Source: Amphiscolops sp. MND2022
Lineage: Eukaryota
Direction: 5' to 3'
Length of the DNA stretch: 64,000 nucleotides
NCBI GenBank assembly: GCA_964187785.1
Contig: OZ076409.1
Span: 37,202,001 to 37,266,000 of the forward strand
Under the pieces are notes generated by a model. The model worked only from the letters and a program-made list of their open reading frames with translations, was not told the DNA's origin and did no database searches. Positions 15,312 to 64,000 of this stretch are shown piece by piece. Each line of letters opens with the position of its first letter. Position 1 is the stretch's first letter. The position numbers and the translations under genes were made by a program.

Positions 15312-15920
15312 TGTTACGACTTACTAATGGGGTGTTGTTTTGGAGAGTCGTTTTAGATCTTATCTGGGTTAATGTAGCAGCAACAAAAGCGTTTTCAGCC
15401 TCGGAATCTAAATCTTCAAGGTGTTGGAAGTCAAGTGTTTTCTTTGCTGCTGGAGCGATCAGTTTTAGCGTTTCCTTTTGATGTGAACTAATAATTTTTG
15501 CTAAGTAAGACATGATTTCTGATCTAAGTGTTGTTTCAATCTCGTCCAAGTTTCCAGAGTGGAGTTTGAGAGACTTACTAGGACCAAGAAATAGGTTTTC
15601 AACAATGTTGTCGTCAATTATGAATGTTTGATACTCACTAAAAGTAGTTGTTCTACAGCTTTTCGCTTCTGACTACGGATTGTCATTTTTGGTTGAAAAC
15701 AGATCATTGTTTTGAAGAGTGTTGAAATTTTCAACAAAATCGTTTTGATATCGATGAAACAGGAAAGGAGTAAAAGGATTAATATTTACAAACAAACGTA
15801 TTTACTCTTTCCAAGCATTGTTTGTTCCTCATCTAAAATCTCCCTATTATTGAAAAATTGGACTAGTTCACAAGAAACCCTTGTTGAATCATTTTATTCT
15901 AGTCCGGCGTCTTAAAGTCA
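15312..15920 (-). mobile_element. Decayed LTR remnant containing a gag-like N-terminal ORF; far end not defined
   Basis: Minus-strand ORF (...TLRSEIMSYLAKII...NTPLVSRN) ends at ...AGTCGTAACA, an LTR-type terminus like ...AGTCGTTCCGACA at 25862. Confidence 0.55.
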
Positions 15921-21351: not shown

Positions 21352-22597
21352 TGTCATGCCTGCCAAGCATGAAGGAAATAAATGAACCCTAAAATACCAA
21401 TTCATACATCAAACTCCCTAAAATACAAATCATCATGTAAATACATTACAGTAGTTTAATTGCCGAACAATACAGTTGAACACATAACGACTGAAACCAA
21501 CAAACATCCATTCATGTTATTGTGCATCGTTTAAACATCCATTCATGTTATTGTGCATCGTTTAAACATCCATTCATGTTATTGTGCATCGTTTAAACAT
21601 CCATTCATGTTATTGTGCATCGTTTAAACATCCATTCATGTTATTGTGCATCGTTTAAACATCCATTCATGTTATTGTGCATCGTTTAAACATCCATTCA
21701 TGTTATTGTGCATCGTTTAAACATCCATCCATGTTATTGTGCATCGTTTAAAAACCAGGACTGGAATATCCAGTCATTGCAGATGATTTATACATGTACG
21801 ACTGAAACAATCAGTCATCAGCTATCGTGATAGTGCATCATTTAACCATTGTTTTTTACACTTTTTATATTACATGTAAAGTATTACTAGAATACTCAAT
21901 CATTTCACAACATTTCGTCTATTTATATCAGTAATTAGTGCAGTATCCATTAGTAAATTACTTCAAAACGATATTTAAAGCAGTCACTATGATGATAAGG
22001 ATACACGGTAGTAAAGCCTCAGTTTAAGAGGTAATTGAGTTAATCGAACACGGAAATGACTGGTGCTTGCGGTCATACTACATCAAACAAGAGTAATTAA
22101 ACACCTATTATCACCCGCGACGACTGGTAGTTGCAGTCGTCAAGTGCAATTAAACAACAATTAGTAGATTGAACGTACGTCATTGGCTAAAAGGAAAGGT
22201 GCTAACACACTTTTATAATTACTCAATCGGGCAATACCAAAAACACACGAATTGTAACTTCTGACGAGACAAGTTGCTTACTACCGTACCTTGAAATCAT
22301 CAATTCTTACTTAAACCTAACACACTTCAATTCAAACTTAAAGTCTCCAACCTCTTTATGGTAACTACCAGATCTCAAAGTAATCAAAATAGACAGACAG
22401 AAAACGGAACTATGAACAGGTCAAGCGATAGTGAAAGCGAAACTAGTTTCCCTGATGTCTTATCGAGAGACCAAATTGCAGACCTTGACTCTGAGGACGT
22501 ATTAACCAGGCGTCAGAATAACAATAACTATGACATAGATCATCGGTTTAATGAAATAAATAGACAAATCGGAGACCTTACGGACATTGTACTTAGT
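21352..22597 (+). repeat. 5' LTR (3' end truncated by the internal deletion)
   Basis: Matches 24539-25790 except for a 4-bp duplication near 22175. Confidence 0.95.
21502..21749 (+). repeat. 8 x 31-bp tandem array inside the 5' LTR
   Basis: Unit aaacatccattcatgttattgtgcatcgttt; last unit has one substitution. Confidence 0.97.
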
Positions 22598-23729: not shown

Positions 23730-24688
23730 TGTCGGAGCGATAAGGTAACACACGACACGATCGGGGATAACAATAAAATGGCGACGGCGACTCGACTGCA
23801 ACAGCTCATTCTTCCATTTCTTATTGTTATAGACTGATCACCTATATCAATATATAATGGACACCTAACCCACCCTATCAAACGGTCTACCCAAGTAATT
23901 ACCGGACATTCGCGGAATCATATTCACGACTCCACCCACAGGATATCAAATGCTAATCAGCAGAGAGAACGCAGTCAAGTTTTCCCTAGCCATAACAGTA
24001 CATATATTCCCTCCCGAGTTAACCGCCTAATCGATACCCGGAAAATACAGGACTAACTGGGAAAAACAAAAATCGCACTACCTTTATTATTGTGGAAGAA
24101 TGAGCAACACCAACGGTTGACAAAACGAAGATGGATAAGGACAAGTATAAACAGGACCAAATTCAATTTTAAAAGCAATAAAGCCAGCAACTGACTCACT
24201 CTACAACAACGCAACAAATCAATCAACTGCCGATGATCGATGAAAAGTTGCTTAAACAAACATTACACTCTATGCGCACTAAACGGATGACGTGGCTGTC
24301 AAACTGTTACTATAAATAAACTTCAACTTCCGACTACCCACTGTTTGCCTACCTCACCTTGTCCATTCATGCTTCCGAAAGTCTCAGCCACTACATTGCC
24401 ACCCACACGTTCTTCCATACCTCGCACGCCACTTCAGCCGCTGTTCAATTCTCAACTCAACCACCTACTACCACTCAACTCAGTCGTTCACCTTTCCCAT
24501 TACCCCTACAGCTCGCTCTCTCTCAAAAAGGGGGGGAATGTCATGCCTGCCAAGCATGAAGGAAATAAATGAACCCTAAAATACCAATTCATACATCAAA
24601 CTCCCTAAAATACAAATCATCATGTAAATACATTACAGTAGTTTAATTGCCGAACAATACAGTTGAACACATAACGACTGAAACCAAC

Positions 24689-24936
24689 AAACATCCATTC
24701 ATGTTATTGTGCATCGTTTAAACATCCATTCATGTTATTGTGCATCGTTTAAACATCCATTCATGTTATTGTGCATCGTTTAAACATCCATTCATGTTAT
24801 TGTGCATCGTTTAAACATCCATTCATGTTATTGTGCATCGTTTAAACATCCATTCATGTTATTGTGCATCGTTTAAACATCCATTCATGTTATTGTGCAT
24901 CGTTTAAACATCCATCCATGTTATTGTGCATCGTTT
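24689..24936 (+). repeat. 8 x 31-bp tandem array inside the 3' LTR
   Basis: Same unit, same count and same variant last unit as in the 5' LTR. Confidence 0.97.
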
Positions 24937-25540
24937 AAAAACCAGGACTGGAATATCCAGTCATTGCAGATGATTTATACATGTACGACTGAAACAATCA
25001 GTCATCAGCTATCGTGATAGTGCATCATTTAACCATTGTTTTTTACACTTTTTATATTACATGTAAAGTATTACTAGAATACTCAATCATTTCACAACAT
25101 TTCGTCTATTTATATCAGTAATTAGTGCAGTATCCATTAGTAAATTACTTCAAAACGATATTTAAAGCAGTCACTATGATGATAAGGATACACGGTAGTA
25201 AAGCCTCAGTTTAAGAGGTAATTGAGTTAATCGAACACGGAAATGACTGGTGCTTGCGGTCATACTACATCAAACAAGAGTAATTAAACACCTATTATCA
25301 CCCGCGACGACTGGTAGTTGCAGTCGTCAAGTGCAATTAAACAACAATTAGTAGATTGAACGTCATTGGCTAAAAGGAAAGGTGCTAACACACTTTTATA
25401 ATTACTCAATCGGGCAATACCAAAAACACACGAATTGTAACTTCTGACGAGACAAGTTGCTTACTACCGTACCTTGAAATCATCAATTCTTACTTAAACC
25501 TAACACACTTCAATTCAAACTTAAAGTCTCCAACCTCTTT

Positions 25541-25862
25541 ATGGTAACTACCAGATCTCAAAGTAATCAAAATAGACAGACAGAAAACGGAACTATGAAC
25601 AGGTCAAGCGATAGTGAAAGCGAAACTAGTTTCCCTGATGTCTTATCGAGAGACCAAATTGCAGACCTTGACTCTGAGGACGTATTAACCAGGCGTCAGA
25701 ATAACAATAACTATGACATAGATCATCGGTTTAATGAAATAAATAGACAAATCGGAGACCTTACGGACATTGTACTTAGTTTAACTAATCAGTTAGCCTC
25801 CGTTAATGGAGAAGGGAACAGACTTAATGCGGTTACTACCAATACCAACAGTCGTTCCGACA
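25541..25862 (+). CDS. LTR-embedded gag-like N-terminal ORF (107 codons); reads out into the flank to 26053; second copy at 22358
   Basis: MVTTRSQ...RFNEINRQIGDLTDIVLSLTNQL (coiled-coil-like); start resembles MPSTRRQ of the gag at 59535. Confidence 0.7.
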
Positions 25863-26019
25863 ACACCCAAAAAATGAGGTTACAGGTATATCATGCTCCA
25901 AATAACCGGTATAGCCCTTTTAGCTGTTTCCGCCATTTTCAATCCAAAATGAGGACGAGAGTAAACCGAGCGGAAACACCGAGACGGAAACCGTTTAAAG
26001 AGAGCTTAAAGAGACTGAA

Positions 26020-26100
26020 CAAAATTCTAATCCGATGTTTGACGTGGCGCTAGGCATGTGACATGCCTAGCGCCCTGTCAAACATCGGATTAGAATTTTT
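26020..26100. repeat. ~80-bp palindrome
   Basis: aaaattctaatccgatgtttgac..ggcgctaggcatgt-g-acatgcctagcgcc..gtcaaacatcggattagaatttt. Confidence 0.9.
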
Positions 26101-36862: not shown

Positions 36863-37039
36863 ATGAGTCTTTTTGCATGAGTCTTTTTTATCATTGTTTG
36901 GTACTTGGAGTCCCAGTTTTTAGCTGTGCGGTCTGTCATTGTAAGTATTGTAGTATATGCCCAAATTTTGCCCACTACTTTTCACCATTCATAACTTAGG
37001 TTAATTATCCCTGCTTATTGAATTATTTCCTCGACACTG

Positions 37040-37527
37040 TTTTTAGTCGGCGCTTTTACAATAGAAGAGCCCGACTATTACAGTCAATCTTTTTTCAAGG
37101 CATTCTCGAATGCGACGAAATTTTTGTTCAGTTTGTTCAAATAAACGAATACCTGGGAAATGCATCGGTTATTGCAACAGGTCCCCTTTTCATTTTTCAC
37201 TTTTTAAACGTAATATAAAAAACCGGACGAGACTCAAGAGTCCTACTTTCATTTTTTCACCACTTTCACTGTGCAACTTTTTATCAAAATTTTTTTATCT
37301 TCAAAGGGTCCCTTTTCGATTTTATTGAAGCCCCCCTCGTAATTATCCGCTGTAAAGCGCTATATCCGAACTTTTGACGTTACATCCGAACCATATTGCG
37401 TTTTATTAAGGAGGAGGTGGAGGTGAGAAAACAGTTGTTTTTCTCGAAAACGTCCCACGCATTTTTTCAAAACTGCGCTTTCTGAGACTTAGATACAGCG
37501 CGGACTTTAGACATTTCCGTCTTGTTG
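37040..37527 (+). mobile_element. HINE-like element
   Basis: ttttagtcggcgc...cccgact start; ends cttagatacagcgcggact...cttgtt. Confidence 0.7.
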
Positions 37528-40802: not shown

Positions 40803-43800
40803 TGTTGTCAACCGTCGTTATATATTGAAGTATACCTAGAGGGCAAACTCTAGACTTGAAACTATTTATGTTGTTACTATCATAGAATCTGATATTTAGT
40901 CTGGCTGAAGTACCTGCTGCCTATAACATTATGAGTATTAAGCAAGACACACTCAGTAGCAAAAGATGGATCAGAAAATACAGTTAAATGCTAAACAATT
41001 TATTCACCTCAGAAGAGAATATATCATGGCGCAATCAGGCTAACGTCTAGCCAAGAACTTATTCAAGAATTCAGCCAAAATCCATCCAAGAATGGACGAT
41101 ACAAACAATACGCCACCAATGAATCGTGGCCGAACCCACCAGACGACGGAACAAGCTTCAGGCAGACTGCCGTTCAACGAAGCAACCACGAAAACAGGAG
41201 AACGGACTTGCACCCAAAAGCAAACCAAACCTATCTGGACAACTCCAATCAAACGTATGGTGGCGCAAGTACATCCAGTACATAACGATGACAAACATCT
41301 CAACTATGGTAAACTCAAAAGAACTTTTACCACAATACTGTGAGCAGCTACAAACCGAATTCAAAAACATATTGCTGTGGGCAATCGGGCAGAATGTACT
41401 TACGGAGATGATCAAAAGGGTAACGGAGAGAGAACCTAGCTTCCTACCGTTGTACAAACTGTATACATAATTCCGACTACACTACTCGCCAGAGAGAAAC
41501 GTACAACGCAGCCAGCTGAGCTGTTTTTTATTCAAAGGCGAATCAGCGGAGAAAACTGGAAAAGACTTTAGAAGTCGAAAAAATTTGCGTGTTTGAAATT
41601 GTCACAGTCGCAGAACTACTAGCATCGAATTTCCTACCACTTACAGGAGATTCTGCGAGCAACTATGAGCTGAAACAAAAATACGCAAAAGCGACACATC
41701 GGTCGAGGAAATAACAGGTGCAATACACGTACACATTTACGAGAAATTAAATGACTCACCAGAAACTGAAGAAGAGAAAAAAATCTGACATGTCGAAAAG
41801 AGAGAATTAAAGATTACCAGAGAACAGACAGAACGTAACATGAAATCCAGAAGAGTATACTGCAACAGATGCAGAGCACCAACTGGTCGCAACATCATGA
41901 AAGTCTCGTAAGAGGTCAAAAGTGCGGAAATTGCAGCAAAACTGGACATCATACTGCATACTGCCACTCAACACGGAAAATAATCCATATAGCGGAAACA
42001 CACAGCGTGGACGAGGACGAATACTTTCAATATACCAGAAGATCTGGGAGGGAGTTAACGGATTGTACCGCCGTTCTAAAGTACAACGCTATACAATAAC
42101 AGGTCAATCAAATTTATAATAAATACAGGATCACCAGTGCCTCTCATTCCGGTATCATAATTCAATAACATGACAGTAGTAAAACCGGTAAATGAAGATT
42201 ACCGGGATGTGAAAGATAATATAATGAAATTGGAGGGAAAAATCTTAGCAAATGTCCAACTAGACTATACAAAGCAGCAATTAGAGTTATTGATAACAAC
42301 CAAAAAAACACACGCATTACTCGGGCTCGATTGGATGGGAAAATTGGGGACCAGCCTCGAATCGGACAAAATCAACGCAAACATGAACCATATAAATAAC
42401 AACATTAATTCGGAGAACACATTAGACCGAAACATAGCGCCACTCAAACTTACGTTCAACAAATTGTTTACGGAAAATCAAACGGTAAAAAATCTGGAAG
42501 TGGACAATCAATCTAAAGATAAGGCAAAATTTGTTCAACAAAAATGTTCAATTCACTTTTAACCTGCAGTCGAAAAGGAAATCGACAAATTAAAAAACAA
42601 AGACACATCATCGATGATGCCAAAAATTTGGATAAAAACTGTTTTGCGAGTCTGCAGTAATCACCATTAAAAATACCATTCAGTAAAAATTGCTCTGAAT
42701 TATTATTGTTTTTAAAACTATAAAAAAACAGTGCAAAGAAACGCACAAATGCCTAATATGGAAGAACTGATATCGTGAAGATCCAGACAAAGAGCGGACG
42801 GACCGGCAGACGAAATATGGATATCAAAGTATGATCAAGATCACGCATACGGACAACTACAGCTCTCGAAACGAACAATGGACCTGTGCATTTTGCAAAA
42901 AGCGGAAGAAAATTTCCAGAGTACGACCGATATCTGAAAGAGTTCTACGGACTAGCCGACATATCAACAAAACTTAACGAAAAAAAAGTTGATCAAAATC
43001 TGGAAAACAAACACCCAGCTTGATTAGACGGTACTATATTAGTACCAAAAGGTTCTAAACACAAACACATAGACAAACTGAAAGACGTACTGACAAATTT
43101 GAATAAGCAGGATACAGATTGAGCGAAAACAAACCCGAACTATTCAAAAGAGAAGAAGAATGAATTGGACACAAAGTAGACCAGAACGAATCCAGACCGC
43201 TGCAAGACACAGTAAACGCCCTAGAAGAATTGAAAAGTCCCGAAAGCGAAGAGGTACTAAAATCGTTCCTAGCAACAATCCAATACCTGTCCAAACACAT
43301 TAAAAATCTCTCAACCCAGGCGGATATCTTGCGACAATTGCTCAAGAAAGCTAATCAAGGGAATTGGACGGAAGAATAAACAAAAGCGTTTAAAACTTGA
43401 TACAAAAAAGAACGGATATACCGTGTCTGGCACACTATAACTCAAATTCTTCGAACGTAATAACAACAGACGCTAGTGCGAAAAGACGGAGTGCCGCGCT
43501 GTGACAAGAACAACCGAACGGTGAATGAACACCGATCGGATTTGCCAGTCGTTTCCTTTCTGACACGCAAAAGAAATGCGCAATCAATGAATTAGATCTG
43601 TTATCCATAGTATGGGGACTAGACCTTAATCGTCTTACATCTATGGTAAAGCGATAAAGTTACTCACAGACCACCAATCATTAGACCCAATAGTCAAACG
43701 CAATCGATCAAACAAAACGTAGAGCGCACGGCTAACAAGATGGCCTGACCGATTACCACATTTCTAAATTAACATGATCCATATAACCGGTAAACACTTA

Positions 43801-46179: not shown

Positions 46180-46379
46180 NNNNNNNNNNNNNNNNNNNNN
46201 NNNNNNNNNNNNNNNNNNNNNNNNNNNNNNNNNNNNNNNNNNNNNNNNNNNNNNNNNNNNNNNNNNNNNNNNNNNNNNNNNNNNNNNNNNNNNNNNNNNN
46301 NNNNNNNNNNNNNNNNNNNNNNNNNNNNNNNNNNNNNNNNNNNNNNNNNNNNNNNNNNNNNNNNNNNNNNNNNNNNNNN
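46180..46379. other. Assembly gap
   Basis: 200 N. Confidence 1.
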
Positions 46380-47299: not shown

Positions 47300-47478
47300 C
47301 GATGATCATTCTCGGCATCGTGGATTTCATCCATGATTCATGGGTTTCCATCCATGAATCATCCATGAATCGTGGATATCTTTCCAAAATCATGGAATGA
47401 TTCATGACCTGGCGATGCATGAATCATGGAAGAATCATCAATGAATATCCATGATTTAGCCATGATGGTTAACCTGGG
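47300..47478. mobile_element. Right end of a CCC...GGG MITE with CATG-rich subterminal repeats
   Basis: catccatgattcatgg repeats ending aacctggg, like 57839-58631. Confidence 0.55.
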
Positions 47479-48852: not shown

Positions 48853-51800
48853 TGTTAAAGAGCACGATAAAACTGAATGAATGTAAATACTGAATTCATA
48901 AATCAACTGTACTCAACGTAAAGACTATATGGTGAATGATCTTTCGTTCAAGTTTCTTCATTACAATTTGGTTGATCAACAACCTGTATCTCTTTTTAGT
49001 GAGTTACGTAGCATCGCTTAGAGCTCTGCCACATATATATTGTAGGCTACATGACTTCAATGATAATGTAATAATGGAGTACATCGTTTGTAGACAGTTT
49101 TTATTTTGTAGTTCTTGTTTCTTCACTCCCTTTTCTACTTCTCCCCTTGTGACTCTTCCCTCTCTTCTGGCAGGTCCCCGTTGTTGCCGGGATTCCTTTC
49201 CGCTAGCTGTTTCTTCTCCGTTAGAGAGTTTTCCTCCTTGTCGCCCCTTCGAGGTGAAAGCTCGGCGACCATGATGTTATGGCCATAGAAGTCTAGCTTC
49301 AGTTTAGTTCACCGCGTCTCGTTATTTTGTGTTCCTCGGCTTGATGTTTGCTTGGCTGGGTGTCGACATTTCTTCTTTTACTGGGCCCGTCCCTTTTTTT
49401 CTTCTTCGGATTCTGATTCCGCGTGAGGTTCTGGTCTCTTTAGTATCTGTATTTTTTTCTCATTCGCGATAGTTTCTTCGCTTTCTTCTGCTCCTTCCGG
49501 AGCTTCCTTTGGCGTGCTTTCGGCTTGAGTTCGCTCAATGCGGCTTTCCCTTGCCTAGTTTGCTCTTCCGTAGCGGCGCGATTTTTATTGGTTATCTCGC
49601 TGTCACTTGGTAGTTATGATTGGCTTGCCATTTCGTCCAATTGTGGCACTTCACACTCAAGTGTCACGTCGCTCTCAATTGTGCTTTCGTTCTTCTCTTG
49701 CTCTGCAGTAGCCGTTGCATTCGACGTTCTTGGCTGCCATCGGGAACAGCAGGGCTGGTCATCATTGCTGCGTCCCACATCACGTTTAGAGATTATTGTG
49801 GTTTGAGTTCTCCCGGCCGAAAGGATAATACTCGTGTGATTACTGTGTTCTAGCAGGGTCCCTTTTAGCTTTTTGGAAGCCCCTTCGAGTTTTGACTCAC
49901 GCGTTTTTTAACGGACCATCATTGCCGAATCCTGTCCCGACTCAAAATCTTCTCCAGCTAGTTTGACCTCTGGTGTCTCTGAAATGAACTGACTTCCGTT
50001 AGGTACTAATCGTTCCCTAGTATTCGGTTCCTGTCACGTAAAGCACTCGTAAAGCGACTTTCTATTGGCCGACGGGTTCATTCGAAGTGCGAATAGAATT
50101 TCTGGTAGACCTGATTTGTCTTAACTTAATATTGTCTTCTTATTCGTGCGTAGCCTCTCATGTACTGTTCGAATTAGCAGTTCTATTTCGCCATTACCTC
50201 TATGATCCCTAATTGGGCATTCAATGTAATTGATGAATCGCTTTCTACAAAGCTCCTTAAACTTGTTACTGCGGAACATTGTTCAGGGTCCGTTCTCATT
50301 GTCTTTGGAATTCCATGTCGTACAAAGTCCTTTTTTAGGAACTCACTTACCTTGTCCGTATTCGGTTCACGCAAACACTTTGCTTCCGGTCAACCTGTGA
50401 AATTCTCAATCGAGACTAAGATGTATTTCCTAGCTCCTATTGCATTTCGAAATGGCCTAGCGATATCTATTGCTATGTCTTGATTATCTCATTACATGTT
50501 AGTAGTTGACCTGCTTGGTTTGGTCTTAAAAGCAGTTTAATGCATTTACCGAAAGTTTCACATTGTTGGCAAGTTTGCGCGATTCCCACTACTTCGCGAT
50601 GAAGTCACGGCCACTACACATTGGCTACCTTTGCAGGCTTGCTGTCACGGCCTGGGTGCCCGTAATGCAGACTGCGTAAAATAATAGGACGTAACTCTGT
50701 AGGGATAACCAGCCTTTCATCCCAATGAAGGAAATCATGATGGTCATCCAGGCTAAAGATGGTCATACGAAACTTTCGTACCAGGGCACAGGAAGGCGAT
50801 TAATTTTTGTTGGCTCAGGCTTCTTGAGGAGATCGATGTATTTCCGAATAAATTCATCAGCCTTGAATTGGGCTGCAAATGTGTAATTCCCTAGATTCTG
50901 AAGGATTTCAAATCGATTGATTGAGTAAAACATTGGCATTCCCAACGGCAGTTTGTCGGCGAATTCAATTGTGATCGTTTCACACATCTCGCTATCTGAT
51001 TGGCTGACCATTAGAGAGCTGTTAACCGGTTCACAAAATGACGCAATTTTGTTCTTAATTGTTAGTTCCTCTTGTTTACTCAACGTCTTCAAGCTCACCA
51101 CTCCGCACGGGTCCGTCAGGTCGCTCTTTTCTGCCAACTCTGTTGTGATTGCCTGATTCTCTGTCTCTCGTCTAATTTGTTCATCTGAAACAATTTTCTC
51201 ACACTTTGTTTTGTTTACCGTGAACCAATTGTTCCATAACTCCTCCGCCTTTACCTGGACATCATTATTACTTCGGCCATTACTAGTCGACCATTTCCAG
51301 GGTTCTACCGTGTGCGTGCGTTACAGTAAATTGGAATGGCAGGAACTTATCTACCCAGCGCATTAGTCGATTTGAGTAACTTTTATTTGCCCTGTTTTTT
51401 ACAAATAATGTCAATGCCTTGTGGATCTGACACGACCTCAAGTTGCCAGCCTTATACAAAATTTCTAAAGTTGTCAATGGTCCAAACAGCAGCCAAAAAT
51501 TCCAATACGTTTATGGAAATTTTTGTTCGGAGAAGTCAGAAATCGTGATGCGAAATGTGTTTCCCTGCAACCATGCTCCGTTTTTGCTTCCAACGCAAAA
51601 AATTCGCAAAGGTTGCTCGCTTTTGAAATGGAATCGTTTTATTTCTGTGATCTTTTGAATTTCCTTCTTTAATGCTTGGAATGTTTTATCATGCTCATCT
51701 GTCTATTTCCATTCCTGTGCTTTGCTAAGTTAAGGTCGTAACGGTGCACACAATGTCGCTAAATGGGACTTAAACCTATTCATCTGTTTCAACGCTGCCA

Positions 51801-54185
51801 TTAAAGAGCGCAGTTTCCTTGGATTCTTTGGACGTAGTCGATCTGAAATTGTCTGAGTTTTCTGAAAAATGGGTTTGACTCCAGTTTCCGATAACTAGTA
51901 TCCCGGCCATTCGATCCTTGTTTGTGCAGTTCTGTATTCTTCCACTTTTATTCGGATGCCCACTCCGTCTGATACTTTTAAGAATTCTTCAACTTTTGCC
52001 ATGTGTTGGTCCTTTGTCCCTTTAGTGACTATAAGGATGTCCTTAATGAACGCAAATATAATTCTAATGTCATGCAATATCTGATCCAATATCTTTTGGA
52101 ATACTGAAGGTATTATCGTTAACCCATTATACCCGGTATTAAAGGAGTATGTCCCCGTTGCTCGGCCCCCGAGGATCTGAAAATTACAATGTCGGGCAGT
52201 GTCCGGGTGTAACTCCTTTTGTCCGTACGCATACAAAATTTCTAGAGATGTAAATCTGACTTCTCACTCACTTCTTTCATTTATGATTTCTGCCACTTGC
52301 TCCATCAAATTGTCGAGGTTAGACATCTGATATCCTTTTGGATGGCATCATTCAGGGATCTGGCATCTAACGCAACCTTCACAGATTTGTCTTTCTTGAC
52401 TGTAATGACAACGGTTTGTATGAAGACGTCATCGTTGATCTTCTCCACTCTTCTAATGTGGTCTCTTTTCAGCAACTTAATAATCTCTACTTCCACTGCT
52501 TCTTGCCGTTGTAATGGGATTCTGCGTCCTTTCTTTTGGATAAATTTGGCATCCTTCTTGAACTCAAATTTAACTTCATGGCCTTTTAATTTCCCTTGTC
52601 AAGAAAATAACTTTTAAAATTTTTGTTTCAGTGTTTCAATGGCCTTACGTTCAGAAATAGTGTTAATAACATTGAAATAATCACCATTTCCGTTGGCTTT
52701 CCCGACCCTGAAGTTGAGTTACGTGAGCAAGTCACGTCCAATTATTGATCCTTCTCCATCTCTGATGATCACGATTCTGGCGTTTTTCAGTTTTCGCTTT
52801 CCCACTTCGACGTCCATCGTCATGAAACCGAAGAGGTTTAATGGTTTATTGTTATAATCCACGTTTTGTTAGTTTTTGGCATTGGTCTTGCAACGATTAC
52901 GTCTTTTTTATCAATTTTTTCAGGTCTGCCTGCGTGAATATGGTGATCGGTGAACCCGAACCGATCATCGTTGCAAACGGAACATTGTCTATCTTGCCTT
53001 TATTCATAAATGATCGATTGCCTCCGCCGCCTACATGCAGCCCTATGTTGTCCTCATCTTGATCGTTGCCGTCCTCTAATTGGTTGCTGTCTTGTTCAAT
53101 CGGGTCGATCCGCCGCATAACGGTTCTATTCACCATCGTGCCTCTTCCCCTTTTGTTGCCAGTTTTTGGCTTTTTGCATATTAGCTCGAAATGGCCACTT
53201 AGCGCACAATTTCTACCCCTCTCATTCTTTGCCTCCCACACGGCCATGGGATTCTGGGGGAATTTTAGTCCACATCTGCTACATGGGTTATACTTTCATT
53301 GACTGTACATACTGGTTCGTTTTTGACTTCTTTCATCACATTTCTACCTCCGAATGTTCGATGTTGATTCATGGCTTCTCCCGTGAGCAATCGCAAATCA
53401 AAACGCCTCTTGTGTATCGTTTTTAGGTTCAGTACACAGCTTCTGGTACACGGTTTTATAGTTCATAATTTCAAAGAATGTGTCCCTTATGCGTCTGCTC
53501 GCCAAAGTCGCATTTCGAGGCCAAACCAGTTAAGTTTTGCTAAAAATGTCGGAGTGTTTCCTTGGAATTTTGCTTTCGTTAAACGAATTTGCATCTTTTA
53601 GGCGTTCAGCTTCTGGGTTTTCGAAACTTTTCGTCACACTTGCCTTTTATCTCCCGTAGTGCTACTGTGGCCACCCTCATGTGGGGAAACTTGTCGGTAA
53701 ATCTTTTCCTCGCTGTCGATCACAGAGATAAGAAAAGGACTCTTATTATTTTTCTTTCAGCCGCCTGCTCTGTCAGATAGCTTAAGAGTGCTGGTTATCG
53801 CAGTTGTTGTTCGGTTACTTCCCGTAACATTTCCGTCACTGATATTGAATAATTTGCAATGGTGGCAACCGTAAAGATGTCCCATCATTCCTCCCATTCT
53901 GTTCTGGGTGCTATGTCTGTCGAATCCCAAAAAGTTGGCAATCCAGACACAGCTGACGCTCCCCCGATGTTGACACTTCCTCGCTGGATTGTAGATCGCG
54001 CAGCGCCATGGTATAAGCTCAATAAAACTGAATGATTGTAATTACTGAATTGATAATCAACTGTACTCAACGCAAAGACCATATGGTGAATGATCTTTGG
54101 CTCAAGTTTCTTTAATACAGTTTTGTTGATCAACAACCTGTTTCTCTTTTTAGTGAGTTACGTAGCATCGCTTAGAGCTCTTCCA
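48853..54185 (-). mobile_element. Decayed Ty3/Gypsy LTR retrotransposon
   Basis: Diverged LTRs 54009-54185 (truncated) and 48853-49125; PBS-like TGGCGCTG at 54008-54001; PPT just right of 49125; remnants of gag (LPTFWD, knuckle), RT (LDARSLN, YAYGQ, FIKDILIVTKG) and integrase (HGIPKTMRTD). Confidence 0.92.
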
Positions 54186-55260
54186 TGTGGGAACATAATT
54201 AAAAGTAAACGATTCTTTTCTACATAAAGTTGGTAATTGCGAAGTACGTTCCTCGTGTGATTCAAAGGTCGCAGTACTGGAACATTTTCGTTCATGTCTG
54301 AAATAACTGAGAACTTGCAATAGATGCTTCTTGTAAGATAGGACGTATACACAAGCCTCAACTTCAGTTGGAAGATGGTGAACTTCAATGATGTTGATTA
54401 CCCGATCATTGTTCCTTTTAAAAGATACTCATTGCAAAATTTTGAAAAACTTGCCAGTTCTCACTGTCCAACTAGCTCTGAGTGGTTTTCAATGGCAAGT
54501 CATAGATTATAGGCGCAACAAGTCACGCACTTGTCAACCATCAACAACGTGAAAGGATAAATCAGTCATGCTAGGATTTCATGCTAGGATTTTATGCTAT
54601 GCGGAAAAAACAATATTTCTTGTTATCTGGACTGAAACGTTTCCAATTGGCAGAGCAACGCGTTTTGTATGCATTCTTTTTGTATGCAAAACAACGAACG
54701 CGTGTTTTTAGTGATCATAGAATTCAGTCTCATCGATTATGTAATAGTAGTCAACACGACAGTCCGCATAGTTGAACTATCTAATTGGGAAATGAAGAAT
54801 CTCTCCAGAAACTTCAAAAATTGTCCTTAGAGATTAGCTGTTTCAGACACGTACCTCTCAAAAGTGGAAATTTGAATCACCCAAAAGGGGCAAAAAGGGG
54901 CGTGATTGTCTCGATGGAGAAATGAATGGTTATCGAAAACTTGAAGCCTATGTTTTTTCTACTGACACATGACGAACCAGGGTCTTACCGTAGCTATGGA
55001 TTGGTCCAAAATTCTATCGACTGATCAACAATCTAATCTCCTCTCTCTGTTCATACTATAATGGGAAAATCGTGGCAAATGTGTGTAGCCTGGCGTTTTC
55101 ATTGGACTCCATCAAATCACATTTTTGAGCATGTGCACTGAAATTCAGTAACAAATCGCTTGCACTTACAAGGGTTTTCACTCACCATAGCTCAAAATGA
55201 AATATCATGAATATTCCAAATATCATATTATCCATTTTAGCTAAATATTATGCAATCGGT

Positions 55261-56104
55261 AGCAAGATGGGAACGACTAAAATCGGTGCTATATCTTAGG
55301 CTTAAAAAGCAACATTTTTAAAATACGCAAGGAGGTTTTTATGAATAGAGAAAACAATTTCGAGACACTCAAAAGGTGCGTTTCGTGCTCGATAAGATTC
55401 GGAAGCCACTCTTCACTTATCCCCAACTGGAAACAAAAAAACATTTTTTGGAAAAAATCTATTTTTTTCTTTCGGAAAATGTCGCATAGTGCCGAAAACC
55501 CTAAGGAGTTCTCTATGCTCGCAAAACGTTTCGTTTCTAGTAAAAGCAAGTTAAAACAAAGTCCCATACAAAAATCGACGGTCTTAAAAGAACAACATTT
55601 CTATATAGCCTGCTGGTTCACTGAGAAAACCAAATTTTAAAACGAAAAATAATCATTTTGAAGAATCTCACAATGCCGAAAATTGTAAAGACCCTTTGGG
55701 CTTTATGAAAATCCAGTGTGTTGCAAAATATCGAAAAAAAAGAAAAGGGACGATTTGGAGACATTGAAAAATTTCCGAAAAGAATCCAAAATAAGAGATT
55801 TTTGAACAGTGTCACGGTGTCGAAAAATGTTAAAGGGGGCACCCTTTCGAAAAAAGTCTCATAGTGCCGAAAAAAATGTTAGTGAAAAACACCTAGGTAG
55901 TCAAAGGCAGGATCCTTAGTATGTTTTCGAGGTTCTGCATGTGTTTTGTTTTTTTGTTTTGTACGAGGTTATGACGTTTCGAGTGTTTTGAACATCAGTA
56001 GTTCAAGTTGCTGAACAAATGAACAAAAAAGTGGACCTTACACGTATAAAACAACTACCCACTGTAAGAGTAGGGCACTTTTCTTCAAAAGCGCTGACTA
56101 AAAA
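55261..56104 (-). mobile_element. HINE/DINE-1-like element, full length
   Basis: 3' end caagatgggaacgactaaaatcggtgctatatcttaggc at 55263; 5' end aaaagcgctgactaaaaa at ~56087-56104. Confidence 0.7.
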
Positions 56105-57838
56105 CCAGGTTGCTCAATACCTCAACATTCTGACATGATGCTTTGTCTTTCAACTTCCAAATGCTATTTCTATTTTGCAATATCAAACTAATGGAGCAAT
56201 TGAGCTCCTCCGAGCAAAAACTATATGAACGATGAAGAGTATCGCCAGAAACAAACGACCCTTAGAAACCCTATAAAAATGAAGGATCCACGTAATGAAA
56301 ACTATTTAAATGTAAAGTGATGAAGGAAAAAAATTCAAGCAATAAAAATTGCAAAAAAGAATGAAATTTCGGCCTCAGAAAAAAATAGTAATTTCGGGCA
56401 TTAACTTGAAATGAGTCATCTCAAATACCTGTTTTTCTTTTCTTTTTTGGGAATCTTGTATTTAAAATTCGATAGATAATTTTGTGGCGCTACTTATTTG
56501 AACAGCTGAAACCACGGCTCCTAAGCTGAATAATTCAAACATTTAATTTGTTCTGAAAATGGGATTTTACTTTATAAATAGACCTCAGGTTAATCGGGAT
56601 TTCTTTCCGACCATCCTAATTTAATTCCGAAAATCACATAAATTTTTCATCTCTTAATTGAAAGTACTAGAAGTGCTTAAAATGAATTGTACATCTTCTT
56701 CAAAATTACTGCAACTAGTTTTACTCTACATCAATGTTTTTATACGTAACCTTGTGAAAAAGACATCAAAAAGAGACTTGAACATACTTATATTTCCACG
56801 TCTATTTGCCTCTGATGATTGGGAGAAAAAACCCCGTGCATTCTTTTTGACCTCCCGGCAAAAATACGCAGAGGTTTTTTCTGTCTGGGGTATAATCTGC
56901 TGATTGGAACAATATAAAATCAGAGCAACTGATTGAATTATAAAGATTTCGTGAGCTTTTGGGACTGTTGCAACCGCATATCTTACGTAGGAAATTTACT
57001 AAGTGTTGATTTCACAAGACGCTCATCACTAGGTTATTTTGCGCCCTTAATTATTTTAACGAGGACTTATTTTAGGGCTCGATTGTGGCTGATGCGCTAC
57101 ATATCGAAACATTTTAATTTTGTTCGGATTTTTTTTTTTTTAAAAAAACAGAATTTTCTGCAATAATTGTGCTAAGAATCTAATTGTCTTCCACTTTGTC
57201 ATTCCACTTGGTAGATATTCGGGCCGACAAAACAATTTTTTCATTGAAAACTAAGTTGAAAGTCAAAAAATTTCTCAATTGAATTCTATAGAATTACGTT
57301 AATTGGTTCAAAAAAAAATTTTGAAGTTCAGTATTTCCTCATGAGAAAGGATATAATTGAGTATTTCATGAAAGCTACTGATGAGCTAATAGAAAATCTT
57401 TTGTCGAAAAAACAGGAAAAGAAAAATGAACCAATCATTTATAGATTTCTCAGCATGAATGAAAAATTCATGCAAAGTTTTCGCTCCACCTGTTTTAGAA
57501 ATTTAGGTTTGCCAAGTTTATGACACTTGATGGGAATAACGATTGAAATGAAGCAATTCAAACATCATTTTTACAAAACGAAACACTGCAGAAATTTATA
57601 CAGAAAAAATATCGTTTTAGTCCGGATATGAGCATTTATCAGCAGGTGGGTGACTATATTCCAAGATAGTCAGCTTTCACATGTTGGTGTTTTACAAAAA
57701 AAACAAGCCTGGAATAATCCAAGTTGGAGCCCCTGTTGATACACAAGAAGTGCAGAGATTCAAAAAGGCCACAGAACTGCTTTTATAATATTCAGAACCT
57801 AAAAGATAAAGAGCTCGAATGAGGAACTTTTGAAGCTA

Positions 57839-58631
57839 CCCAGGTTGTCTGTCATGGCTCGTTCATAAAAAATCATCCATGATCATGGATTTTTCGACGC
57901 ATTACTTCTCCTTTCATGGATAATCATGGATGGCCCATGGCAGGGCATGGCCCCATGGATCATCATCCATGATTTTGACCCATGATTCATCCATGATGTG
58001 CCATGTTGAAAACTTCGTTCAAAGTCGAACATTTTTTCTTACTGTGTCAGTTTTTGTCTCTTAATTCTGTCTCTTGTTTCTGAGGGTTACCTTAATGGCC
58101 CGGGTAGCATTAAGGACGCATTTCGGCACCGCGCATCCTGAAACCGCGAGATAGCTAAAGTTTTCGTTAGCATTAGGTGGGTTTTTGATAGTTTTGGGGA
58201 TGGTTTTTGACGGAATTTTTGGGACTCGTCGGAGGCCACGTTCTCGTCGTGAGTCCTGTCACGTGTGGTATATCTATAATATACCGCACTAGCAGAGAGC
58301 CTCCAACCCAGAATAAGGACATTTTTCAATTACTGAAAGCTTTGCTTTCAGTTGAAGTGAATGTCCGACATTATGCTTCTAACTTCATTTTGTTTCAGCT
58401 CAAGTAATGGAGAGTGGTCAAAAATTAGACCATATCCATCTTGTTTGAAGGCAGTTTTGGCTATCGGAACGGCCCGTTTCAAATTTTTTCAGCCATGGCG
58501 CATGTATTTCTATCCATGATTCATCCATGATTCATGGATTTCCATACATTGCCCATGTCATGGGGCATGCCATGGCGAGCCATGAATCATGGGTGAATCA
58601 TGGATGGCGGACCATGGCGTGACAACCTGGG
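57839..58631. mobile_element. CCC...GGG MITE (CACTA/EnSpm-like), 2-bp TSD TA
   Basis: TA-CCCAGGTTGTC ... GACAACCTGGG-TA; CATG-rich subterminal repeats at both ends. Confidence 0.8.
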
Positions 58632-59534
58632 TAGCAAATGCTTTTCCCAAACTGAAAACAATAACATGAATCATAGAGGGTGTCGCAGGCGGCCGCCTGT
58701 GACGGAATATTATACCAAGTCGGACCCGAAGACGATAACACTAATCCCGGACCGGGCGTACTGCCTATTTGAAAGAAAACTCCACAATACATTGATTATT
58801 TAATTAGCAATCTTCTCATGCACTTTAGTTCATTCATTTGTTGTTATTCTTTTCTACATGTAAATATGAAGTCTTATTAATGTGACTCAAGGTCACCTTG
58901 ACGGCATGAATAATCATATTTTGATGCAATCTTATGTAAATTAGTTGTTGAATTACATTTATAATAATGATGTGAACTAGTACCAAAAGGTGCAAAACGC
59001 TGTACAAGCAGTTAATTTGAATGATGTTGATAACAACAATAGAAAGCAAGATGGCTACTCAAGTGAAAGGAAACGCGTTCAACTGGTACGCTGCTGCCGT
59101 CCAGTTGACGCATAGTCACTTTGCTTCTATCCAATCACGGCGCTACATTTAGTTATAGTTCAATGCCGTCATGCGGACGTTAGGTCCGATTAGTTAACGC
59201 ATGTAGTATTAAACCTGTGGCAGCATGAAAATCACCGTTAACATGTAGTTGTTATTAACCAGTATGTTGCTTCTATTTATAGAACCTATGACGTGTAGTC
59301 ATATGACACCCAGTTACTATATTTAGAATTGTGATGTAATAGTTATTTTTAATAATGATGTCATTACTATTTTTAATCAATGACACCCCAAATACCGTAT
59401 GTCATGCTGTAGTTAGTATATATATGTAAGTTTCAAGTAATATTCAATCATTCAATACGATAATCTCAATACAAACCGTTCTGTTATACGCTTTCAATTC
59501 AACAATCTACTATTGAACAAAACCTTCTTTTGAT

Positions 59535-61331
59535 ATGCCCTCAACTAGAAGACAAAAGGCGAAAGAGAAACGTTCAAGGCAATCCGACATAATGTCTGAT
59601 ATTGAAAATCTAGATGTGATGCTCGGAAATTATTCAAACACTGAAATTAGGGACCAAAACGCAGTAGATGAAATAGAGATTGACCCTGAGTCAAATAGAC
59701 GGCATCAAGGTTTTAGCCATGAGGAAAGTAATTATAGGTCTCTTTTGAATGCAAATTTGAGTGAGAATAGTGAAGTTACAGTAGAAACCAGTAGAGCAAT
59801 CAGTTCGGAAATTTCTTCACAAATGTCAAGGAAATTGGAAGAAATGAAATCTGACCTAAATTCCCATATTATGGAGGTAATAAACTCTGCTATTGATGAG
59901 AAAATACTACCTAGCATCGAAAACGTCATAGTAAATCATAGGGAGCGCAAAAACACAAAGTTGGACCTTCGGTCAGATGGACGGCATCCGAGTAGAAACG
60001 TCCCTATGGACCAGACTTTGGACCTTGGGTCATATGGACGGCATAAAAATAAATTCAGCCAACAGGTCCAGGACTCAAGAGAGAATTTTCCTAGACTAAA
60101 CACAACAGTAAATAACCTTCCAAGTCATCAAATGGAATGTTCAGGAGATTCTGAACAGAGTGAAAATGAAGAAGGTTATGACATGGTGACAGGAGCCAAC
60201 CTTACTCCACATGTAGTCCCTGAATTTCTGACCGGACGTCCCACGCAGTCCCGAAACAAAATTCCCCATCAACAATGCGTCAATGATGACACATTAGACA
60301 CCACTCTCCCGGCACAAATTCCCTCAAACCCTATCAATGACCGGGAAACCCAACCCCAAACACCTTTAGACCCCATAAACAGACTTGCCGATGTCATTAT
60401 GGGAATGAACAACAAATCATCAGCGCAAACACTGATGGTACGACCAGTCAATACCGCCACACTCACATTTGATGGCAAATCTGAAAAATTTGAACTGTTT
60501 GAAGACCTCTTTCACACGGTGATAAAGATGCAACCCGAGATGACGGAAGCAATGAAAATTAATCATTTTCATTCACTGTTGCGCAAAAATGCCCTGCAAA
60601 CCTTCCGCAACATCAGTTCAGCAAATAGACAAACCTTAGAAGACGTACTAGCTGTGTTCCGTAGGAAATATGTCAAACCTGAATCCCAGGCAACTGCCAA
60701 ACACAAATGGCACAAATTGGTGTTTGACCCAAACACAATGAAATTGCCCGATTTTCTTGAGGAACTCAATCAGGGCGCCGAAAAAGCCTTCGGCGAACAC
60801 GCACAAGCCATGATTGACAGTCTGCTATACGCAAAACTCCCACCGAAACTCAAACGCTCAGTCAACATGGCGCGATTAGAGAATGCCACCTACGAAGAAA
60901 TTGTCACTCATCTCGAACGAGAACTGGAGCTGAATGGACTTGAGGAAGGTGACGACATTCCCGTTCCCACAATGTCAACAGCCCCGACAGCCACACGCCC
61001 GGGACAAGGACTCCTTTCATCAGGCATTGACCCAGGAATAACTTGCAACTACTGCAAAAAACCTGGACATGTCAAAGACGATTGTCGAAAACTAAAACGA
61101 AAGGAAGAGCAAAAACGCAATGAAGGCTCGGGTACCAAAAAAGAGTACCCAAAGTGCCCGACTTGTGACAAAACCAATCACCCGGCGGAGAGATGTTGGA
61201 AAGGCGCTGGAGCCCACCTCAAGCCCAAAAACCTCAAATTGGATAGTCCAAAGGAGGACGACGCGACCAGTAGTCGTGATGACCCTACCAACAAAACTAC
61301 CACTTCTATCCTTAAAAACTCAAAAAACTAG
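59535..61331 (+). CDS. gag: Gag, 598 aa, two CCHC zinc knuckles
   Basis: FDGKSEKFELFEDLF capsid-like region; CNYCKKPGHVKDDC and CPTCDKTNHPAERC. Confidence 0.95.
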   Translation: MPSTRRQKAKEKRSRQSDIMSDIENLDVMLGNYSNTEIRDQNAVDEIEIDPESNRRHQGFSHEESNYRSLLNANLSENSEVTVETSRAISSEISSQMSRKLEEMKSDLNSHIMEVINSAIDEKILPSIENVIVNHRERKNTKLDLRSDGRHPSRNVPMDQTLDLGSYGRHKNKFSQQVQDSRENFPRLNTTVNNLPSHQMECSGDSEQSENEEGYDMVTGANLTPHVVPEFLTGRPTQSRNKIPHQQCVNDDTLDTTLPAQIPSNPINDRETQPQTPLDPINRLADVIMGMNNKSSAQTLMVRPVNTATLTFDGKSEKFELFEDLFHTVIKMQPEMTEAMKINHFHSLLRKNALQTFRNISSANRQTLEDVLAVFRRKYVKPESQATAKHKWHKLVFDPNTMKLPDFLEELNQGAEKAFGEHAQAMIDSLLYAKLPPKLKRSVNMARLENATYEEIVTHLERELELNGLEEGDDIPVPTMSTAPTATRPGQGLLSSGIDPGITCNYCKKPGHVKDDCRKLKRKEEQKRNEGSGTKKEYPKCPTCDKTNHPAERCWKGAGAHLKPKNLKLDSPKEDDATSSRDDPTNKTTTSILKNSKN

Positions 61332-64000
61332 ATTTGCCACGACTCCATATTAATGAAAAATTACGCATCAGACAATATATAATATCTGACCCTCCTACTA
61401 TATACTATACAGAATATTACTCTTCTATTAAAGAAAATTCATCAGCTGACTGGCAGCAGCAGGTGAAGCATTTGCCTACTCACTTACACAACCCGGACCT
61501 TCAGTCCGACAGACAGCACTCTAATACTACGACCATTCGCCCCCTTCCCCTAATCGATAACTATAACCCATATTACCCTGACCCGGACTTCGGATTCGAC
61601 CCCTATTGGGACATTCAAATCTACAACCAACATCAGTTACACTTCTATCAAAACTTTACCAAAAACATTGCCGATATCGAACATGATCAACCTCACATTG
61701 ATCAGCTCCTAAACACAAAACTATCCACGGCCTCCGTTGACCCCTGGCAAAATGTGTCGATTAAGACCAATTCACCAATCCAGGAGGCAATAACCGAACA
61801 ACTTCCACACAATGGACCTTTGGTCACATTGACGGCAACAGTGGAAGAACGCTTTGTGAATACGCTGATCTCACGAAACGGTGAACCTGACTACGTCCCG
61901 TTGACGACCAACTTGGGACTCAAATACAAACGACGGATGCTTTACTTCCCCATGGATTTTGGCGAACTAACTTTAGATGGCCTTGTAGACACGGGAGCCC
62001 TATCTAGCGCTATCCCAGAAGCCGATCTACGTAAAATCCGATTGTTAGCCCCTCAATCAATAATTAAAGAGGGCCCGGCACCCAACTTCCAGATTATGGT
62101 AGCCAATGGACAGCTGGAGACTCCAAAGAGCACTGTTGAACTCAAATTCGAAGTCGGGGACATCGATTTCCACGAGATCTTCATTGTTATGGAAAAACTC
62201 ACAAGTCCGTTAATTGGTCTCTCGTTCCTGCAACGGAACAATACCATACTGGACATGCGTCAAGGAGTTTTGAACTTCCCTTTCTTCTCCATGCAACTGA
62301 AAACTGCTGACCACAAGTACACTAACGTCATGGAACCTATCTGTGCGCGGGAGGATATAACTATTCCCCCCAACGACAGACATATGGTTTCCATGTTCTC
62401 ACAACTCTATGACGACACAAACGTCACTGGAATTCTTCAACCGAGCAATGACCTTGCAGAAGATGGTGATATAACCTTCTGCGCTGCTCTAGTCACACTG
62501 ACCCAAGGTCAGGTATCAATTCACGTCAACAACTTCACTGACCAACCGTTCACCCTCAAAAGAGGTGCTCACATTGCCAATTTCTCTGTCCTCACACCAG
62601 AGCAGATGAAATACGTCAAACCCATTGATCCCGTGACAACTTGGCACCTTTTGAAGGATAACCCGGAAAATGCTGCCTATTATGCCAGTAGCCTGATCAA
62701 ATCCCCGAAAACTAACGATGATAGTGAGAACTACTGGTTCCCTACTCCAGAAGAACCAGGAGATCCTCAAACTCATACACCCATACAACAAAGAATCCTT
62801 AGGGAACTACGAAATCTCCAAGATTTAGAGAAACTCAACCCTCAGGATGACCCTGAATCGCGGAAACAATTTCTTGCTAACTTTGACTGGACAGACTCTA
62901 CGCTGAATCCAGCCGAAATTGCCCAAATTGAAGAATTACTTGTTGAATTTCACGACATTTTTGCACGACACCGTTTTGACATAGGTATGAACGAAGATTT
63001 CAAGGTCACTTTGACCCCTAAAGATGATTCCCCTGCCTATAGTCAAAGCTTACCTACTCCTATCAACCTCAAAGAAGATATCCTTGTAGAACTAGCACTA
63101 CTACATCGATATGGGATTATAACAACTCTCCCATTTTCCAAATATGCAAGTCCCATCTTTGCCCAGAAAAAACCTAACGGCAAACTTCGCCTCCTGGTTG
63201 ACCTCCGAAAGATCAACAACCTGATTTCTGACGATTACATCAACAACAACCATCCTGTCAGCACACTAACGGATGCTGCGCAGCACATGGCAGGCAAACG
63301 ATTATTTTGCAAACTTGATTGTTCTCAAGCATACCACTGCCTTCAGATGGCTGACCAGAGGTCAATCGAGATGCTGGCGTTCAATTTTGCCAGCAGAACC
63401 TTTGCCTATCGCCGACTTGCCCAAGGTCTAAGCAGAGCGCTGTCCGCATTCTCGAGCTTTATGCGCGAATACCTGGATAAAGTGATAAAAGCTGACCAAT
63501 GCGCTCAGTACGTAGATGATATTGGGATAGCTGCAAACGACGCCACTCAGCTCATCAACAACCTTCGAGCAACGTTCCAGTGCATCAGGACCGCTGGTCT
63601 CAAACTAACGATGCACAAGTGCCATTTCGGAGCCAAGGAAATCGACTTCCTGGGACGTACCATCACTCCTGAAGGGGTGCGGCCACAACGACCCAGGGTC
63701 CAGAATTTCTTGGAAAAGACCAAATTCCCTAAATCCAAGAAAGCACTTCAAAGATACTTGGGATTCTTGAATTACTACCGTAACTACATACCAAGGCTCT
63801 CAGAAAAACTCACACCGTTCTTCAAATTATTGAAAAGTGATGCCAAAGTCATGGTGACACCCGATCTGTTAGCGAAATTCACCGAGATCAACAAAGCTCT
63901 TGACCGATGTTGTGAACTGGCACTCAAACAACCTCTACCCGATAAACAGATAGCCCTGATGACGGACGCTAGTTTTTCGGCAGCAGGTTATGCGGTTCTC
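61316..64000 (+). CDS. pol: Pol (protease, dUTPase-like domain, RT, start of RNase H) in the -1 frame; 3' partial
   Basis: Open from 61316; LVDTGA at 61982, KLDCSQAYH, YVDD at 63509, MTDAS at ~63959. Confidence 0.95.
61322..61328 (+). other. -1 ribosomal frameshift slippery heptamer A AAA AAC
   Basis: X XXY YYZ in the gag frame directly before the gag TAG, inside a 16-nt gag/pol overlap. Confidence 0.85.

Follow-up and report, generated by a model that had tools for sequence, protein, structure and literature searches.

A Ty3/gypsy-type retrotransposon in which gag appears to open inside the long terminal repeat

Gypsy retrotransposons usually have a non-coding long terminal repeat (LTR) and a gag gene that starts after the primer-binding site (PBS). 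The largely intact element at the end of the DNA stretch analyzed here (64,000 nucleotides, called the window below) appears to depart from this plan, with a gag gene that opens far inside the LTR and is read in frame through the LTR end and the PBS. This raises the questions of where the LTR ends, whether the codons in front of this end encode protein, and how such a layout could have arisen. The features are listed in Table 1.

Table 1. Positions of the features discussed, numbered from the first letter of the window. TSD, target-site duplication; RT, reverse transcriptase.
Feature	Position	Strand	Basis or remark
Decayed LTR remnant, probably of a third family, with an ORF that reaches the LTR end as ...SRN	15312..15672	-	
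Truncated 5' LTR of the second family, junction lost	21352..22597	+	
Complete 3' LTR of the second family, 1324 bp	24539..25862	+	TSD and polypurine tract
Decayed element of a different type: Ser-type PBS and junction, lacking a long ORF upstream	41026..41038	+	
Junction and Ser-type PBS, second decayed element of the other type	53997..54009	-	
5' LTR	58681..60183	+	3' end established; 5' start upstream of 59355, 58681 a candidate only
TATA-like run and possible transcription start ~30 nt downstream	59417..59452	+	
gag ORF, 598 aa	59535..61331	+	ORF list
LTR-encoded gag codons 1-216 and the A of Met217	59535..60183	+	
Predicted coiled-coil-like helix, residues 83-142	59781..59960	+	Structure model
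LTR terminus TGACA	60179..60183	+	Its TGA closes one alternative frame
PBS TGGTGACAGGAG, read M-V-T-G-A	60184..60195	+	Its TGA closes the other frame
Capsid domain of gag	60360..60959	+	Structure model and Atlas clusters
Two CCHC zinc knuckles	61041..61196	+	First by Pfam (below cut-off), second by eye from the sequence
pol: protease, dUTPase-like and RT domains; still open where the window ends	61316..64000	+	
A AAA AAC heptamer in the gag/pol overlap	61322..61328	+	pol in -1 frame

The proteins of the element point to the Ty3/gypsy group. The predicted model of the capsid (pLDDT 77) has the PNMA2 and dArc capsids as its best structural matches, with weak E-values of 0.01-0.1, and in the Atlas the capsid region matches Ty3_capsid/Retrotrans_gag clusters with a score of 0.95. 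The first zinc knuckle is recognized by PF00098 at E 0.004, below the cut-off. The best Pfam match for gag is DUF1759, a domain usually associated with Bel/Pao. The pol product, which would be reached from gag by -1 frameshifting at the heptamer, contains a protease (PF13975) followed by a reverse transcriptase (PF00078), both above the Pfam cut-off. Its PDB matches include Ty3 Gag-Pol (E 1e-18), and the top PDB scores of the reverse transcriptase, those of foamy virus and caulimovirus enzymes, are close to the Ty3 score. Pfam shows no integrase between protease and reverse transcriptase in the part of pol within the window, which excludes the copia gene order; the integrase itself would lie past position 64000. 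Ty1/copia membership was ruled out by this interval and by a PBS that is not similar to initiator Met tRNA among the ends compared from a published table (see below). A protein search with Gag found 3042 relatives among 8000 scored candidates, and the best 120 of the 3042 are 62-95% identical to it and all come from ENA. We are fairly confident that the element is an LTR retrotransposon of the Ty3/gypsy group, young and present in many copies, and that most of its transcribed LTR portion (R-U5) codes for protein. Its own 3' LTR falls beyond the window end at 64000.

The position of the LTR end is central to this reading. The preliminary description placed the probable end after 216 gag codons, and the local observations behind it held: no TGG was found from 59400 to 59537, in agreement with its absence between 59400 and the gag ATG; the proposed junction at 60183 was found again, with CATGG located at 60182; and the ATG at 60183 lies 216.0 codons from 59535, so that Met217 is in frame and reads GYD-MVTG. 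With this end, gag opens 649 nt inside the LTR, and the LTR stops after 216 codons plus one base. Protein databases offer a check on this base. If the LTR holds codons 1-216 and its last base is the A of codon 217, proteins predicted from 3' and solo LTRs should match Gag up to Asp216 and then read into flanking DNA, with residue 217 drawn from the A-codon class (I/M/T/N/K/S/R). Short protein clusters matching residues 1-260 numbered 855, and among the best 120 of these, 69 break off at Asp216, 21 go on into gag, and 30 stop earlier at scattered points. Residue 217 belongs to the A-codon class in 69/69 break-offs. Three of these retain a few gag residues; without them the count is 66/66, compared with 34/66 at residue 218 and 467/1099 in the tails (background 42%). 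A replicate set of 128 members, from ten clusters of our choice (eight of them from the short-match list), gave 90/90 at residue 217 and 36/82 at residue 218, with 25 members classed as continuing (two look like A-class breaks) and 13 ending earlier. When pooled, 156/156 database break-offs at Asp216 have a next codon starting with A.

We also compared break-off proteins with Gag proteins in 15 pairs, taken as lying on the same contig by the equal size of their source contigs. In 13 of the 15 pairs, the break-off protein was the best or tied-best match to its paired Gag among 229-230, as twin LTRs would predict, and seven pairs showed no difference at all. One miss is a further copy located on that contig, and the other belongs to a different subfamily. 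Searches for DNA of other family copies gave no match in viral, metagenome (gag alignment) or genome contigs, and with the 3' LTR also missing, the boundary is drawn from predicted proteins. These proteins show that the LTR ends at 60183. The alternative is that the LTR stops before 59535 and that GYD-MVTG is a chance look-alike, for which the location of this copy's 3' LTR outside the window leaves room. We regard it as extremely improbable in view of the 156 break-offs at one base, the twin pairs, the TSD-defined end of a second family at the same peptide (see below), and a gag ATG that is not preceded by TGG from 59400 on.

Residues 1-216 of Gag comprise a basic N-terminus, a predicted long helix, and disordered linkers. 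The helix is modeled in blocks at pLDDT 76-92 and is the only confident stretch of the full-length Gag model (pLDDT 42), which has low confidence beyond the helix and was left out of the fold search. An ESM Atlas search with residues 1-216 gave no usable match, and Pfam found nothing above the cut-off in this part. It could be argued that the real Gag starts at Met217 and that the ORF in the LTR is an untranslated or neutral by-product, consistent with the missing Pfam match and the mostly disordered prediction. However, conservation follows blocks, with identities of 0.75 for residues 1-35, 0.52 for residues 76-135 and 0.26-0.29 for the linkers among 66 relatives under 72% overall identity. 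The LTR part varies from 192 to 217 aa in relatives by in-frame indels, with the frame kept. In 12 relatives the frame is open across 50-129 replaced residues and several in-frame indels each; assuming 0.062 nonsense per missense change, each of these frames would have remained free of stops under neutral drift with a probability of 3e-4 to 4.5e-2. The relatives were collected as open proteins, which biases them toward intact frames, and we treat this comparison as supportive and distinct from a dN/dS test. In addition, the largest Gag clusters (116, 136, and 71 members) are full-length fusions of the LTR part with the rest. The frame staying open through such divergence suggests that the LTR-encoded part behaves like protein, and the by-product explanation seems very unlikely to us.

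The PBS at 60184 is probably primed by a leucine tRNA. No tRNA genes were found in the window, and the PBS was compared with seven tRNA ends picked by eye from a 189-row table (PMC13524379). It matches the ends of Leu UAG/AAG tRNAs at 10/12 positions, 9 of them contiguous, and an untyped tRNA end in the same table at 11/12; the exact PBS string was not found in the available part of the PMC13524379 supplements. The junction also constrains the reading frame. At 60183, ACA TGG TGA meets a stop in the PBS and TGA CAT a stop in the LTR end, leaving GAC ATG GTG alone open. Any ORF over this junction must therefore read D-M. The stop from the PBS should hold wherever the PBS is TGGTGA, a sequence that the clade can be expected to share given its MVTG peptide, and the block by the terminal TGA holds in some families only, as the second family has an LTR ending in CGACA. 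The preliminary description took the shared junction frame as informative. We do not retain this view, because both other frames are closed at 60183 and because the families form one group on capsid trees, so that they are not independent draws of junction phase. The shared phase would represent one inherited event with at most two options. Similarly, Met217 is kept in 117/119 full-length relatives with the motif, and this conservation is uninformative because the LTR-end CA and the PBS TGG fix it. Met217 would be a by-product of CA/TGG in the sole stop-free frame rather than a selected start.

A second family in the window provides an LTR end defined at the DNA level. The element at 21352-25862 is flanked by the TSD ACACC (21347-21351 and 25863-25867), which fixes its LTR end at 25862; a polypurine tract precedes the LTR at 24539-25862, and its two LTRs are 99.7% identical. 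The LTR contains 107 gag codons (25541-25862), open to the LTR end, and its earlier reported ending in GAC A in codon phase was verified from the phase of its ORF. Among 14 longer relatives, 13 read D followed by [MI][VA]TG at residue 107, the position of the LTR end according to the TSD, and the remaining one has a deletion across the junction. The capsid core of this family is 27% identical to that of the first family. In a sample covering the second-family set and the best 150 of 1625 cluster representatives, 33/34 MVTG-like matches follow one of the residues that NAC codons specify (D, H, N, or Y), which is what an LTR with the terminal bases ACA would demand; 12 of the 33 belong to the second family, and the single exception lies within the capsid. 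Complete-looking LTR-encoded parts span about 107-223 residues across families. At the level of these sequences, a gag start in the LTR with an in-frame LTR end and PBS is shown to be the layout of the whole sampled clade. The LTR-encoded parts of the two families could not be aligned with each other (hhalign 0.13%).

Three more junctions lie in the window. The remnant at 15312 ends in AAC A in codon phase, as proposed, and this was verified on the minus strand. It has a weak match to the protein P0446 (24%, E 7e-5) that ends at the CRN/MVTG junction of P0446; a target-site duplication was looked for at this remnant and not found. The junction ATG at 41026 was likewise found in frame with the 41092 ORF across one stop, as described earlier; all three ATGs before the conserved gag motif of this element share the junction frame, and the motif itself is in another frame. 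The junction at 54009 (minus strand) is a fifth one, left out of the first reading. Its element has no long ORF upstream, and its junction ATG is the sole ATG before the first conserved gag motif, with which it is out of frame in this copy. The PBSs of the 41026 and 54009 elements match Ser tRNA ends listed in PMC13524379 at 11/12 positions, and both junction ATGs have a purine at -3. These Ser-primed elements, both decayed copies, may start gag at the junction ATG.

The possible use of Met217 as a start bears on the proposal, made in the preliminary description, that the ancestor began gag at the junction ATG, that gag was later extended from the LTR, and that long and short Gag isoforms are made today. 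The Met217 context, GACATGG, and the content of residues 217-598, which contain the whole capsid and both zinc knuckles, are in line with a short isoform, and the retention of Met217 in relatives could be cited as well if it were not forced by the LTR end and the PBS. However, 17 ATGs lie between Met1 and Met217, seven of them in frame, which makes leaky scanning unlikely, and a pyrimidine would occupy -3 in 9/33 junctions (those with H or Y before Met) if the LTR ends in ACA. With Met217 fixed in this way and so many ATGs upstream, the two-isoform claim was not borne out. An internal transcript may yield a short Gag by analogy with Ty1 p22, a truncated Gag from an internal transcript (PMC4974528). 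The Ser-primed elements and the unalignable LTR parts of distant families also fit the proposal, the latter as independent extensions would predict. Against an ancestral junction start, no multi-copy family is among the eight representatives whose first residue is the junction Met: all are in clusters of 1-2 nested among extended families, and two are on contigs shorter than 7 kb.

A more distant relative also argues against upstream extension. Our reverse transcriptase scan gave 15 short metagenome loci with 48-72% identity, and a junction could be read in only one of them, L012 (68% identity). This locus is represented by one decayed copy on a contig that lacks its 3' LTR, and in an unrooted tree branch lengths of about 3 separate its Gag from the clade. 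Its junction reads TTACA followed by TGGTGTCAGGAGTGGGAT, with a PBS that shares 11/12 bases with the window PBS and is close to leucine tRNA ends given in a PMC13524379 supplement. The gag ATG of L012, in the context ACCACCATGG, follows the PBS at a distance of 79 nt. The junction ATG is in a different frame, which hits a stop within 13 codons; the frames upstream contain 4-11 stops in 115 codons. The claim that a junction start grew upstream into the LTR finds no counterpart in this locus, where gag starts downstream and out of frame. Taking both sides together, we consider the extension and two-isoform proposal unlikely.

The order of parts in L012 offers a different explanation. Its gag ATG is followed by a heptad-rich stretch (by a score that is our own rough proxy), a long linker, and the capsid. 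Another locus, L010, has a similar N-terminus and no such junction between this N-terminus and the capsid. The window Gag matches this order only when its LTR-encoded piece is counted. Alignments of LTR-encoded parts with the N-termini of L012 and L010 were no better than reversed controls, one of which reached E 8e-4, and weak matches were therefore ignored. Tandem degenerate copies of the junction peptide were found in P0387, P0465, P0402, P0414, and P0396, each from a single sequence and both upstream and downstream of the intact motif, and they suggest how the LTR boundary could move. We lean, with confidence slightly above even, toward a reading in which the LTR end and PBS moved into gag, rather than a junction start growing upstream. 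The layout would have arisen once, with the LTR end and PBS landing in the linker between existing N-terminal helical and capsid domains. A possible route is that the junction was duplicated and the downstream copy then used. The LTR part would later have changed length by in-frame indels.

Alternatively, an N-terminal piece could have recombined into the LTR, perhaps repeatedly, and been fused to a gag without its own N-terminus. The LTR parts of the two families, without detectable homology and twofold different in length, would be expected from such chimeras, but fast divergence of disordered or coiled-coil sequence explains the lost signal equally well. Moreover, the families all have one junction peptide in common and are built alike, from a basic start, a helix and a linker; an M-x-[ST]-T-R start recurs in four distant families, and homology of the LTR-encoded part is detectable as far as P0387 (E 6e-6). 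We find a chimeric origin doubtful.

The other end of the LTR was also considered. The preliminary description set the LTR start at TGTCAT 59400, and this was abandoned: the N-terminal extension of P0349 is homologous to window 59355-59441 (62% over 29 residues, E 5.7e-9 / 9.8e-8), and the homology crosses 59400 unbroken. The interval 55000-60183 contains five copies of TGTCAT and none of the 7-base sequence inverse to the LTR end. Position 59359 was rejected as an LTR start as well. By this protein homology the LTR start is upstream of 59355, and 58681, where TGTC is followed by a hairpin, is a candidate only. TATATA is present at 59417 and 59419, and transcription would begin at an LTR site 5' of 59535. 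Translation from Met1 would then give a single Gag of 598 aa, and a leucine tRNA would prime at the PBS within gag. The strong-stop DNA would thus be at least 650 nt long and would copy the N-terminal exon-like piece into both LTRs. RNA folding of 59440-60300 showed nothing special (z -0.05). AATAAA occurs at 59879 and 60048, both within the coding part of the LTR, and some means would be needed to escape 3'-end processing in the 5' LTR.

In Ty1, GAG starts inside the LTR. The Ty1 PBS is inside the GAG ORF, at nt 94-104 of the RNA (PMC4974528), and ribosomes read through the priming site, as predicted for the window element. Unlike Ty1, which is copia-type and primed by initiator Met tRNA, the window element is Ty3/gypsy; its PBS would lie at least 650 nt into the RNA, and its LTR includes a predicted 60-residue helix. 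Ty LTRs are 251-371 bp long (PMC7175516). The element shares its capsid fold, zinc knuckles, protease followed by reverse transcriptase, and gag/pol overlap with conventional Leu-primed Ty3/gypsy elements such as L012 and yeast Ty3. It differs from L012 in its gag start and in open frames upstream, and the PBS segments of yeast Ty3 lie next to the 5' UTR and within the 3' UTR. A gag start in the LTR of Oikopleura Tor elements finds no support in the available part of PMC4402516, and narrow phrase searches of the open-access literature found no description of a Gypsy gag starting far inside the LTR. The principle is known from Ty1, and what is new is its occurrence in a Gypsy clade and its much larger scale. 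Protein-coding sequence within an LTR is also known from retroviruses, as MMTV sag and HIV nef are ORFs in 3' LTRs. These lie in U3 and are separate genes with their own stop, read from the 3' LTR, whereas the ORF in the window forms the beginning of gag and stays open to the LTR end.

With over a third of Gag encoded in the LTR, the element stretches the textbook Gypsy layout and forces a very long strong-stop DNA and translation through the priming site. In such elements, pipelines whose LTR search stops at the gag ATG would place both the boundary and the PBS wrongly. The clade, with its about 107-223 codons in the LTR, is a natural series for studying LTR boundary movement. A bolder reading treats the LTR as a portable promoter plus N-terminal exon and joins this to a stepping junction and expressed fragments; we think it improbable as a whole. 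If it is true, the LTR end and PBS step along gag via junction duplication, strong-stop DNA of 650-750 nt must be made and transferred, and the many 3' and solo LTRs give rise to Gag fragments that are basic, form coiled coils and carry random tails; these fragments would act as dominant-negative copy-number control or as seeds of new fusion genes. In this case the junction ATG may also serve to make a short Gag. As in the Ty1 p22/p18 control, assembly could be disturbed by a shortened Gag that the element itself supplies; Ty1 p22 is C-terminal and comes from an internal transcript, and unlike it the fragment from a 3' or solo LTR here is N-terminal and predicted only. Solo-LTR formation would also leave coding sequence behind, with an open-ended protein fragment for each spare LTR, and 66 of the best 120 among the 855 short clusters are LTR copies reading into flanking DNA.

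The main element, the Ty3/gypsy retrotransposon at the end of the window, carries an in-frame tandem duplication of ~57 nt (window 59960-60057) within the part of gag that is encoded by the LTR, and the alignment has a gap at this duplication in the subfamilies with 194-199 LTR-encoded residues. Residue 217, the first after the LTR-encoded part, was T, S or R in excess of the AT-rich expectation (chi-square p 5e-8, calculated against an assumed background of 36% GC) among 156 break-off proteins, which are database copies that match Gag up to Asp216 and then run into unrelated flank. This skew hints that C or G is preferred as the first base of the target site. The junction peptide D|MVTG, the translated LTR end and primer-binding site, is repeated in tandem in degenerate form in five relatives of this Gag (P0387, P0465, P0402, P0414, and P0396), and these copies may be fossil LTR-end/primer-site junctions.

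The pol frame (window 61316-64000) contains a dUTPase-like domain (PF00692, E 4.6e-7) in the order protease-dUTPase-RT, and a stretch of ~200 residues N-terminal to the protease gave no Pfam match. An A AAA AAC heptamer is located immediately 5' of the gag stop (window 61322-61328), and the K-N ending at the Gag C-terminus is present in 18/18 aligned Gags. The heptamer and the kept ending are consistent with a -1 frameshift site. Fifteen metagenome loci related by RT (L001-L015), all from a single metagenome record series, share 48-72% RT identity with the main element; the primer site of L012 is of the leucine type and 18 bases long, and its gag starts in the conventional place.

The window holds other elements and repeats. 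The LTR of the second-family element contains a 31-bp tandem array; its 1.9-kb interior gave no gag match, and minus-strand ORFs occur there. The decayed plus-strand element abuts an N gap (46180-46379). One CATG-rich palindromic repeat lies a short way 5' of the candidate LTR start of the main element.

Further features of the window
Feature	Position	Strand	Description
Second-family element	21352-25862		LTRs near-identical, 5' LTR truncated
Decayed Gypsy-like element	41026-46179	+	Ser-type primer site, short repeats
Decayed Gypsy-like element	48861-54185	-	Ser-type primer site, short repeats
CATG-rich palindromic repeat family	47325-47443, 57850-58003, 58487-58625		Three members
Palindromic/inverted-repeat elements	14941-15085, 26021-26099, 36535-37378, 58681-58703		MITE-like
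Open frame	28776-29207	-	144 aa; repeated K-R-[ML]-L-[SN]-F-S-T motifs

With its motif repeats, the open frame may resemble a neuropeptide precursor.
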